Below, one piece after another: positions 30,576-33,149 of a stretch of DNA of 64,000 nt. The translations under genes and the position numbers were made by a program. This DNA comes from a virus. The DNA lies in the IMG/VR virus record IMGVR_UViG_3300018933_000004, positions 14,791-78,790 of that record. One strand, 5' to 3'. Numbering within the stretch: position 1 is the first letter of the stretch; each line of letters begins with the position of its first letter. The notes below the pieces were generated by a model. It searched no databases. It had not been told where the DNA came from and worked only from the letters and a program-made list of their open reading frames with translations.

Positions 30576-31361
30576 ATGAGCCGCATGACCGCGAAGGCGA
30601 AGAAGGCATGGGACGAGCTGAACAAACGTCAGCAGACCTACATGGAAGCCATCTACCACGCCGACCAGGCCGTCGAGGCAGCCCACCGCAAGGAGGCCGC
30701 CCGCACCTGGAGTAACACCCCCGCCCGCGTATGGCGCCGCCTGCCCTTCAACGGGCCCTACTCTCACATCGCGCCCGCGCTGCGCCACCACAAGGTCTAC
30801 GACACCGGCGCCGGAGCCACCCTGGCAGCGCTCCGCGACCGAGGGCTGATCGAGAGCGAGACCTGGACCGGCCTGCTCACCGACCCGGTCTACGTCTGGA
30901 TCACCCGCGAGGGGCGGGCGGCCGTACGGGCCGGGCTCGGTCTGCAGTCGGCGCGCACCAGCAAGCCCAAGTGGGCCCTGTCGGAGTGGCTCTGGAAGGA
31001 ACTGGTCAAGGTGGCCGCCGCCGGACCCGAGGGCCTCCAGCGCGGAGGGCTCTATGGCGACTCCCACCTCTATCTCTCCAAGGGACATAAAGGCCGCCGG
31101 GGCAACCGCCCCTACGTAGACGGCTCGAACTACCGGTGGGTCACCTACGACGCCTACGTCAGCCTCGGCAGCTCCGAGACGTACAAGAAGTCCGAGCCGG
31201 TGTACTACTACATCCTCACCGACGAGGGCCGCGCCCACTACGCCGAATACCTGGAGCAGTACCGCGAGCTGTACCCGGACATCGACGCCCCCGACCTACA
31301 GGATCCAGGCGGCCAGGAGGACGAGGAGCAGGACGGAGCCCCAGAAGCCGCCGACCAGTAG
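30576..31361 (+). CDS. Hypothetical winged-helix-like protein
   Basis: GATLAALRDRGLIE...VWITREGRAAVRA resembles wHTH ends; Streptomyces plasmid-type protein. Confidence 0.65.
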   Translation: MSRMTAKAKKAWDELNKRQQTYMEAIYHADQAVEAAHRKEAARTWSNTPARVWRRLPFNGPYSHIAPALRHHKVYDTGAGATLAALRDRGLIESETWTGLLTDPVYVWITREGRAAVRAGLGLQSARTSKPKWALSEWLWKELVKVAAAGPEGLQRGGLYGDSHLYLSKGHKGRRGNRPYVDGSNYRWVTYDAYVSLGSSETYKKSEPVYYYILTDEGRAHYAEYLEQYRELYPDIDAPDLQDPGGQEDEEQDGAPEAADQ

Positions 31362-31457
31362 CAGGGCAGCGCGGACGTACGGGTGGTGCGGTGTGTGGCG
31401 GGTCACGGCGTCCAGTGTGCCCTGGAATCTCCGGCTCCACCGAACGGGCCGGGAAAG

Positions 31458-31495
31458 GCCGAAGGCCCCCGAACGAGTCAACGGGGGCCTTCGGC
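31458..31495. terminator. Terminator hairpin between convergent units
   Basis: GCCGAAGGCCCCCG / CGGGGGCCTTCGGC. Confidence 0.75.
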
Positions 31496-31556
31496 TGCTT
31501 GGGCGCCTTGAGAGGTGCCTTCAGCGTTGCGATCCTCGCCCTGGGCGGATGGCTGT

Positions 31557-31630
31557 CTGCAACACCCCGCATCGGCGGGGACAACTGCAAGCAGTCAGCC
31601 GGGACATCCCCGCTGACGCGGGGGAATCAC
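31557..31630 (-). CRISPR. Two type I-E-like repeats separated by 15 nt (mini-array or solitary-repeat-like); no cas genes in window
   Basis: Minus strand: GTGATTCCCCCGCGTCAGCGGGGATGTCCC and GTTGTCCCCGCCGATGCGGGGTGTTGCAG, both with the CCCCGC-N4-GCGGGG stem and I-E-like flanks. Confidence 0.5.
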
Positions 31631-31727
31631 CTCACGGCGGCAAGGTGACCGGCCCGGTCCCAGGGCCCGTGCCGGTAAAAAGAACTCTAGCGGCTCCGGG
31701 CTGTTGGTGCGGGCGAGTTGGAGAGAT

Positions 31728-33149
31728 TCACTCTGCGGGGTGTCGGCGTCCCCGAAGGAAGGGGTAGCGCACTTCAAGGCCGAGGATGACAGTCGGCGGC
31801 CGCTGCAGGTACCGCCCCCACAGCGTCTCGTCCCGGTCCTGGCTGGGGCCGCGAACCGGCGCAGCTGCGGAGCTTTTCGTGGATCCCTCGTAGTTGTTGC
31901 AGGCTGCACACAGCAGGCCACGGACGAGTCCGGTGTCGTGGTCGTGGTCTTCGTGGTGCTCGGTACGGCCGGGGAGTATGCCGCACATCGCGCACCGGTT
32001 CTGGTGGAAGGCGAGGAGCCGGTCGACGGGGTGCTGGTCAGGGTCGTACGGCGGCACGGGCCAGGACCAGCAGTCGGGTTCGTAGCTCGCCCAGCGCTGC
32101 TCCCAGTCGTCCCAGCGCTGCTGGTACGCCCGGCACTCGGGGCAGGTGTCTGCCTCTTCGGGGGTGCGGTGGGCGTGCATGGGACTGGCGCCGAGGGTCT
32201 CTTCCAGGTCGCGCTGCATGCGCAGGGCGAGAGGAAGGTCTGTGGGCTGGGGGGTGTCGGTCCAGGTGCCGTCGCCCGCGCGGTGGCGGCGCTTGACGGT
32301 CGTGAGGGCGGCGGGCAGGCCGTCGGTGAAGGGAGTCGGGGAGAGGGCGATCTGGTCGGGTGTGACGCGGTCGGGCAGCAGCCGGTTGTCGCCTGCCGCG
32401 AGGACGGCGCGCAGCGCGGCGGCGGGGGTGACGTGGGGGTCGAGGCGGGCGCCGCTGCGGGAGGTGATGAGGGGTTCGGTGGGGTCGTCGGTGGGTGAGG
32501 GGACGCGGTGGGGGAGGTAGGCGCGGATGGCCCGTTCGAGCTCGCGGCTGATGCGGTAGACCTTGACGCCCTCGCCCTTGGGGAAGGGGGCTCGGACCTG
32601 CGGGGGGCGGTTGTCGAGGAGGGGGATGCTGTCGAGGTTGAGGCCGACGATCTGCCGGGGGCGGAAGCCGTCGAGCATGGCGTAGACGAGTGTCTTGTCG
32701 CGGTGGCCGTGGCGGGCGCCGCTGGCGGCGTGCAGCCGGGCGAGGAAGGCGATGGCGATGGTCTGGCGGCGGTCGAGGGCGGGGGTACGGGGCAGGTCGG
32801 TGGTGCGCAGCCGGGCGGGGTCGAAGGGCATCTCGTCCAGGCGGCCGGTGCGGACGGCGTAGTCGTAGAAGCTGGACAGGGCGCTGAGGCGGCGCATGCG
32901 GCTGTGGGCTGAGCCCTTGAGGCGGTCGCGGGCGCGGCGGCTGTGGGTGGCGAAGTCGGCCCAGGTCTGGACGTGGGCCTCGCTGGCGTTCCAGGCGCCG
33001 ATGCCCATGGCGTCCTCAATGAAGTCGAGCCAGGCGGTGACGTCCTCGCGGTAGCGGGCGGGCGTGGTGCCCTGGAAGGCGCGGTCCTGACGGCCGCGCT
33101 GGTGCTCGGTGAGCCACTCTTCCATGACGGCGTAGGGGTCGTCGGCCAA
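31728..33149 (-). CDS. Tyrosine-recombinase-like domain fused to recombination Endonuclease VII
   Basis: SAM-like N-domain (RRLSALSSFYDY), box I GFRPRQI, no HxxR or catalytic Tyr; C-terminal CAMC...EDHDHDTGLVRGLLCAACN. Confidence 0.8.
   Translation of the reverse strand: MADDPYAVMEEWLTEHQRGRQDRAFQGTTPARYREDVTAWLDFIEDAMGIGAWNASEAHVQTWADFATHSRRARDRLKGSAHSRMRRLSALSSFYDYAVRTGRLDEMPFDPARLRTTDLPRTPALDRRQTIAIAFLARLHAASGARHGHRDKTLVYAMLDGFRPRQIVGLNLDSIPLLDNRPPQVRAPFPKGEGVKVYRISRELERAIRAYLPHRVPSPTDDPTEPLITSRSGARLDPHVTPAAALRAVLAAGDNRLLPDRVTPDQIALSPTPFTDGLPAALTTVKRRHRAGDGTWTDTPQPTDLPLALRMQRDLEETLGASPMHAHRTPEEADTCPECRAYQQRWDDWEQRWASYEPDCWSWPVPPYDPDQHPVDRLLAFHQNRCAMCGILPGRTEHHEDHDHDTGLVRGLLCAACNNYEGSTKSSAAAPVRGPSQDRDETLWGRYLQRPPTVILGLEVRYPFLRGRRHPAE

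Follow-up and report, generated by a model that had tools for sequence, protein, structure and literature searches.

RNA anti-CRISPRs that give Cascade a new target, and do not simply block it, have been described only recently, mainly in Proteobacteria. Virus-borne mini-CRISPR arrays acting in inter-virus conflicts were reportedly described by Medvedeva and colleagues in 2019, with full-length spacers that match rival viruses. Cracrs are viral crRNA-like regulatory anti-CRISPR RNAs with shortened guides, and both type I-E and Actinomycetota classes have been reported (Liu et al., 10.1101/2024.10.29.618823). Their guides measure 24 and 21 nt in the two tested I-E examples and mostly 17–21 nt in type I-F, and they are recognized by at least nine PAM-proximal matches to the guide of the host CreR or CreA or to its promoter target (10.1101/2024.10.29.618823). 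The host design has been shown experimentally for type I-E in Salmonella, where the creR target lies ~140 bp upstream of casA and has an AAG PAM, and where the first pseudo-repeat conserves the 5'-handle part and the second the 3'-handle part (10.1101/2023.03.10.532045). Mini-arrays of the cas3-cas8 interval were described by Shmakov et al. (PMC10120712). Racrs are RNA anti-CRISPRs composed of solitary repeat units, and I-E examples have been tested (Camara-Wilpert et al. 2023, PMC10651486).

The locus described here lies on the minus strand (31630–31557) of a 79,454-bp virus record with a G+C content of 69% and a CheckV completeness of ~51%. The analysis covered a 64,000-nt stretch of this record (the window), and the features identified are listed in Table 1. 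The carrier, a virus by its record, is probably an actinobacterial phage-plasmid. The sequencing runs in which its DNA was found are biocrust metagenome DNA runs only (one run and two further runs of the same study), and no close relatives were found in phage or plasmid collections, IMG/VR or the 401 Streptomyces genomes. The hairpin CCCCGC-N4-GCGGGG is present in two copies, 43 nt apart, and occurs nowhere else in the record. By our estimate, composition alone predicts ~0.2 copies per record, so the pair is not attributed to chance. Each copy folds into a 6-bp stem closed by a tetraloop (−15.2 kcal/mol, z −3.4, for the first and −12.9 kcal/mol, z −2.7, for the second). A first-pass annotation had reported them as an orphan pair of I-E-like repeats around a 15-nt spacer, downstream of a recombinase-EndoVII gene and without a cas operon. 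The pair was recovered on the same strand and at the same coordinates, and the mini-array begins 98 nt past the stop codon of that gene. The record, ~51% complete by CheckV, has no gene for Cas6e, Cas7e or Cse1; like a Cracr, the pair lies on mobile DNA and apart from any cas locus. The 15 nt correspond to the whole interval between the units (31600–31586), but in the type I-E register, with an 8-nt 5' handle and a 5-nt 5' flank ahead of the hairpin, the spacer has 14 nt. No Rfam family reached its gathering score anywhere in the window.

Table 1. Coordinates of the viral mini-array and its surroundings in the window, and of the host mini-arrays of Streptomyces
Feature	Position	Strand	Basis or remark
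Upstream gene, recombinase-like N-terminus fused to Endonuclease VII	31728..33149	-	Phage_int_SAM_1 and Endonuclease_7 domains
TAGAGT, candidate -10 element, 54 nt before pseudo-repeat 1	31684..31689	-	Weak candidate
Near-palindrome between the stop of the upstream gene and the mini-array	31648..31676		
Pseudo-repeat 1, 30 nt	31601..31630	-	Hairpin 31623-31608 (CCCCGC GTCA GCGGGG)
Predicted 8-nt 5' handle ATGTCCCG	31600..31607	-	Register from 61-nt arrays with the same handle and from the 15-unit alignment
Pseudo-spacer (guide), 14 nt, GCTGACTGCTTGCA	31586..31599	-	Type I-E register
Pseudo-repeat 2, 29 nt	31557..31585	-	GTTGT and hairpin 31580-31565 (CGAT loop); tail 31564-31557 degenerate
Predicted mature crRNA-like RNA, 43 nt (handle, guide and 3' hairpin)	31565..31607	-	Inferred; equals the block conserved in 15 units
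Perfect 14-bp hairpin	31458..31495		~60 nt downstream of pseudo-repeat 2
Host CreR-like mini-array	L215:549-635		
Host CreR-like mini-array	L216:526-612		
Host CreR-like mini-array	L242:668-754		
Host CreR-like mini-array	L246:676-762		
Host CreR-like mini-array	L248:683-769		
Host CreR-like mini-array	L249:694-780		
Host CreR-like mini-array	L251:668-754		

The 8-nt 5' handle is the part of a type I-E repeat that remains on the crRNA after Cas6e cleavage. In unit 1, the hairpin and the adjoining ATGTCCC are identical to the repeat core of genuine I-E arrays with a 61-nt period in Streptomyces and IMG/VR contigs. These arrays were retrieved by a hairpin-plus-ATGTCCC scan of IMG/VR and of one genome per prokaryote species, and they occur in many Streptomyces, for example S. 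sedi and S. toxytricini. The identity bears out the likeness to actinobacterial I-E repeats that had been noted at first pass, and indicates that unit 1 has a correct hairpin and a correct 8-nt 5' handle. The unit shows the repeat features of a Cas6e substrate, namely a GC stem of 6–7 bp, a tetraloop and then an 8-nt handle as in real arrays. The locus departs from a regular I-E array of several 29-nt repeats and ~32-nt spacers in having two units, a 14-nt spacer and a first unit of 30 nt. The guide is 18 nt shorter than 32 nt, which corresponds to three Cas7 steps below normal. Pseudo-repeat 2 likewise has a correct hairpin and 5' flank, ahead of its degenerate tail, and in it GTTGT and the hairpin make up the predicted 21-nt 3' handle. 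As in Cracrs, two degenerate repeats that keep only their handle-forming parts enclose a shortened guide. As in CreR, what is preserved in unit 1 is precisely the segment that encodes the handle, and in unit 2 precisely that of the 3' handle, around a short guide.

The 5' part of pseudo-repeat 1 is degenerate and has two bases more than genuine 29-nt repeats. These extra bases would fit a functionless, decaying remnant of captured host DNA, as would the single copy and the lack of close virus relatives that could show conservation. However, the segments that a Cas6e-processed mature crRNA would keep are the segments intact here, and the degeneracy is restricted to those predicted to be dispensable. 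The flanks have no homology to host cas loci, and the same design recurs in six unrelated viruses described below. A decaying remnant is therefore considered improbable.

Type I-E systems are common in Streptomyces, and Cse1 was found in 167 of the 401 sampled genomes. DNA upstream of cse1 was surveyed from 117 loci, and in seven loci belonging to one Cse1 clade the interval from the end of cas3 to the start of cse1 contains a mini-array transcribed away from cse1 (Table 1). In each, a degenerate hairpin is followed by the handle GTGTTCCN and a 14-nt guide, and then by a second, well-formed hairpin whose tail is degenerate, which matches the layout of Salmonella CreR and of the mini-arrays of Shmakov et al. 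Every one of the seven guides has a cognate site with an AAG, AAT or AAC flank 119–142 nt upstream of cse1, and these sites abut a −35-like TTGCAA, TTGTAA or TTGCGA. Guide and site pair at positions 1–5 and 7–11 in six of the seven loci, leaving positions 6 and 12–14 unpaired, and they co-vary locus by locus in all seven Streptomyces loci. The target type predicted for the viral element is the same as that of CreR, a PAM-flanked site ~130–140 nt upstream of cse1/casA. CreR lies between host cas3 and cse1, whereas the present element is found on a virus record without Cas6e, Cas7e or Cse1. Moreover, the host guides pair at 10 positions only, whereas the present guide resembles the promoter site over all 14. 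The handle of the carrier virus (ATGTCCCG) also differs from the one shared by host and viral units (GTGTTCCN), which counts against a Cracr-type reading.

Many other Streptomyces Cse1 matches (L098–L127) lie in open frames of 1,500–1,800 aa, which suggests cas3-cse1 fusions. At these long-frame loci, a CRISPR array ends ~3.2–3.5 kb upstream of the Cse1 match, roughly at the frame start (the starts are unmapped). Beside the fused cas3-cse1 loci, no mini-array was found within 1.5 kb of cse1.

Counterparts were also identified outside cas loci. A pattern scan detected short-spaced hairpin pairs, multi-unit orphan arrays included, in 20 of 401 Streptomyces genomes, versus 5 with the reversed control. 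A BLAST match led to an orphan array in a Streptomyces genome without Cse1 (G025; L169:1495-1680 = G025:C34:43788-43943), which has four repeats and guides of 20, 19 and 14 nt. Its last unit shares 11 of the 15 nt between units with the carrier virus and has the same GTTGT flank, which is also common to two viral units (L413 and L414) and one host mini-array (L246). The third guide of this array (14 nt) matches the promoter site of host locus L248 at positions 1–11 beside an AAT PAM. An IMG/VR scan for the handle, 14 nt and a second repeat retrieved six further high-GC viral units (L411, L412, L413, L414, L415 and L417). Among these, the guide of L414 matches the L242 promoter site at positions 1–11 beside an AAG PAM. 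Both the third G025 unit and L414 have at least nine PAM-proximal matches, as Cracrs do. The G025 contig and the six viral carriers are unrelated to the present virus.

Further orphan arrays with guides of 20–23 nt were found in L158 (G276:C486:4451-4617), L157 (G343:C27:4352-4467) and L156 (G120:C99), and each of the three ends in a degenerate repeat and a hairpin. The three guides of L158 (G276) match promoter-proximal sites of different I-E loci, as in a multiplexed array. In IMG/VR, more viral mini-arrays with I-E repeats have guides of ~19, 25 and 32 nt (L010:2677-2760, L008:7817 on the minus strand, and L007). A conserved leader with GTGCCATAGTGG or a close variant precedes the first repeat in L411, L412 and L414 (and in L008), and the units of L415 and L417 are embedded in longer arrays. 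Downstream of the G025 array are a terminator-like hairpin and then a gene with a weak HTH_17 match.

An alignment of 15 units (seven host, six viral, one orphan and the present one) is gapless across the predicted mature RNA, and the flanks diverge. Its two helices are paired in 90% of cells, compared with 51–63% in slid controls. This alignment, together with a guide that falls within the cse1-promoter site family, lends comparative support to the suggestion made at first pass that the locus may encode a crRNA mimic, processed by host Cas6e, that would sequester Cascade or repress a target without cleavage.

The same alignment bears on whether the units are ordinary GC-rich stem-loops (a terminator, an RNA stabilizer or protein-binding palindromes) whose likeness to I-E repeats is accidental. 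The mini-array region lies between convergent genes (the plus-strand gene stops at 31361) and is strongly structured (z −5.35), and the two hairpin units can also pair with each other, all of which could be expected of ordinary stem-loops. The 23-mer formed by the unit 1 hairpin and ATGTCCC also occurs unchanged between ylxR and infB in several Streptomyces species (L017, L026, L069 and L075), where it is a conserved leader hairpin, with variants in L018, L020 and L053. This leader belongs to a housekeeping operon and is a CRISPR-repeat look-alike, so the motif alone proves nothing. The concern raised at first pass that the motif might be a frequent GC hairpin or REP element does not apply to this genome, where the motif occurs at this locus only, although the 23-mer is shared with the infB leader. 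Against chance resemblance, there is no U-tract, and each alignment column of the CreR/Cracr family is matched in spacing, handle, 5' flank and guide. Ordinary stem-loops are thus regarded as a very unlikely explanation.

The guide GCTGACTGCTTGCA is identical at 12 of 14 positions to the cse1-promoter protospacer of L248, with the last 10 nt identical and the mismatches at positions 2 and 4, in the seed. Among the 158,882 14-mers of the virus (both strands) compared with the seven protospacers, it is the single best, and it lies on the right strand and in the right register (shuffle p 5e-5). With the host guides it shares only 5–8 of 14 positions, and at positions 6 and 12–14 it sides with the protospacer rather than with them. 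Like a Cracr guide, it is related to the cas-promoter site targeted by the host's own CreR. As it resembles the cse1-promoter site used for cas self-regulation, RNA counter-defence is the most likely role.

A PAM-flanked copy of the spacer in the element or the host, which the first-pass annotation had proposed as a check, did not emerge. The virus genome contains no AAN-flanked guide match with ≤2 mismatches, and the exact cognate site is absent from the DNA upstream of cse1 in the 117 loci. Whole-genome pattern scans did not find the predicted site in 381 Streptomycetaceae genomes or in 5 genomes with ATGTCCC repeats. A pattern scan of metagenome contigs gave, among the matches listed, chance ones only, on contigs of ≤66% GC and none Streptomyces-like, and comparison of the biocrust runs with a host CreR locus gave only spurious short pieces. 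Two partial matches were rejected. One, in L194, agrees at 13/14 positions but falls within a divergent ORF, and chance could account for it; the other, an 8-mer close to the L251 promoter, is flanked by a repeat-like CCC and was considered a coincidence.

The sequence directly shows the architecture, the relationship by homology with units of hosts and viruses, and a guide that resembles a promoter site. On comparative grounds, we consider the mini-array to be probably a viral Cracr-type RNA anti-CRISPR that copies an actinobacterial I-E CreR (probability roughly 0.55). Minus-strand transcription would either continue from the upstream gene or start at a weak promoter of its own. Cleavage by host Cas6e at the foot of both hairpins would release a 43-nt RNA composed of the 8-nt handle, the 14-nt guide and the 21-nt hairpin, on which a shortened Cascade with three Cas7 steps fewer could assemble. 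This complex would occupy a site with an AAN flank, directly next to the −35 element in the cse1 (cas8e) promoter of the host, and shut cas expression without cleavage, and the same RNA would compete with defensive crRNAs for Cas proteins. Compared with described Cracrs, the present guide is shorter (14 nt), and its best pairing among the sampled hosts (12/14, with mismatches at positions 2 and 4) falls short of at least nine PAM-proximal matches. The element comprises one unit, not an array of several guides, and no known acr gene is adjacent.

Because no target was identified, the main rival is a pure decoy, in which the RNA is processed, is bound by Cas6e and other Cascade subunits and titrates them, the guide has no target and its promoter likeness is a trace of descent from CreR. 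This resembles Racrs, which are repeat mimics on viruses that likewise compete for Cas proteins and are documented against type I-E (PMC10651486). It also agrees with the failure to find a cognate site in the 117 loci and the 5 and 381 genomes and with the seed mismatches at positions 2 and 4 to the nearest promoter site. However, a Racr is a solitary repeat without a guide, whereas the present element is a repeat-guide-repeat unit with a promoter-like 14-nt guide. This guide fits the promoter protospacers (12/14) better than the host CreR guides (5–8/14), and its agreement with the protospacer where the host guides differ (positions 6 and 12–14) would not be predicted by descent from a CreR gene alone. 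In addition, the sister elements G025 and L414 match promoters perfectly at positions 1–11. A pure decoy therefore appears a possible but rather unlikely alternative to a Cracr-type repressor.

The guide could also be aimed elsewhere, whether at genes of the host or of the virus itself or at a competing mobile element, with host Cascade borrowed for regulation or inter-element conflict. The lack of an identified target would be compatible with this, as is the existence of virus-borne mini-arrays against rival viruses, which are said to resemble the present element as cas-less repeat-spacer-repeat units on a virus. However, those mini-arrays carry full-length spacers against rivals, whereas the present guide has 14 nt and is host-promoter-like. 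A 14-nt type I-E guide is too short for canonical interference. The virus genome holds no AAN-flanked match with ≤2 mismatches, and the guide falls squarely within the cse1-promoter site family, making a target of another kind doubtful at best.

Within the Cracr-type reading, a more specific model is put forward tentatively, as one that may well not hold. The element would be a 'super-repressor' whose 14-nt guide pairs with all 14 bases of a cse1 promoter site, including the −35 hexamer, in a Cascade with about three Cas7 fewer. It would outcompete the host CreR and lock the cas operon off, and would be too short to license Cas3. Guide lengths of 14, 20, 26 and 32 nt form a series in the Streptomyces mini-arrays; if the model is true, this series reflects discrete Cascade stoichiometries exploited by host and virus.

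The virus element, the host CreR-like units, the six viral sisters and the orphan arrays extend the idea of Cascade reprogramming to actinobacterial viruses. The kind of element is already known, and the additions are a 14-nt guide class, a Streptomyces CreR family with 5+5 pairing and a spread among actinobacterial viruses. The co-varying series of guides and promoters with 5+5 pairing offers a test bed for the shortest I-E guide that still assembles and binds. In Streptomyces, the prediction follows that certain phages and plasmids act on transcription to turn off the I-E immunity of their hosts.

Several features surround the mini-array. The TAGAGT upstream of pseudo-repeat 1 is only a weak candidate for a −10 element, because a scan for consensus sigma-70 promoters returned none, and read-through from the recombinase-EndoVII gene may be an alternative. 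The terminator that had been annotated at 31458–31495 was retained in part. The perfect hairpin is present and probably marks a transcript end or acts as a stabilizer, but a terminator scan of 31200–31900 called no terminator-like site, neither there nor at the two units; the hairpin was missed because it has a short T-run and no U-tract. An attP site for the adjacent recombinase-like gene was considered and set aside, as the family alignment accounts for every conserved column. On the minus strand (31549–31600), the guide is complementary to the tail that follows unit 2 (GGCTGACTGC with GCAGACAGCC). This pairing could close the guide of the precursor into a longer stem around the second hairpin, and it is not conserved in the G025 homologue. 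Just downstream of the 14-bp hairpin, a short ORF (31296–31406, minus strand) runs into the 3' end of the convergent plus-strand gene (stop at 31361); the ORF has high third-position GC and a hydrophobic helix, and possibly encodes a small membrane peptide.
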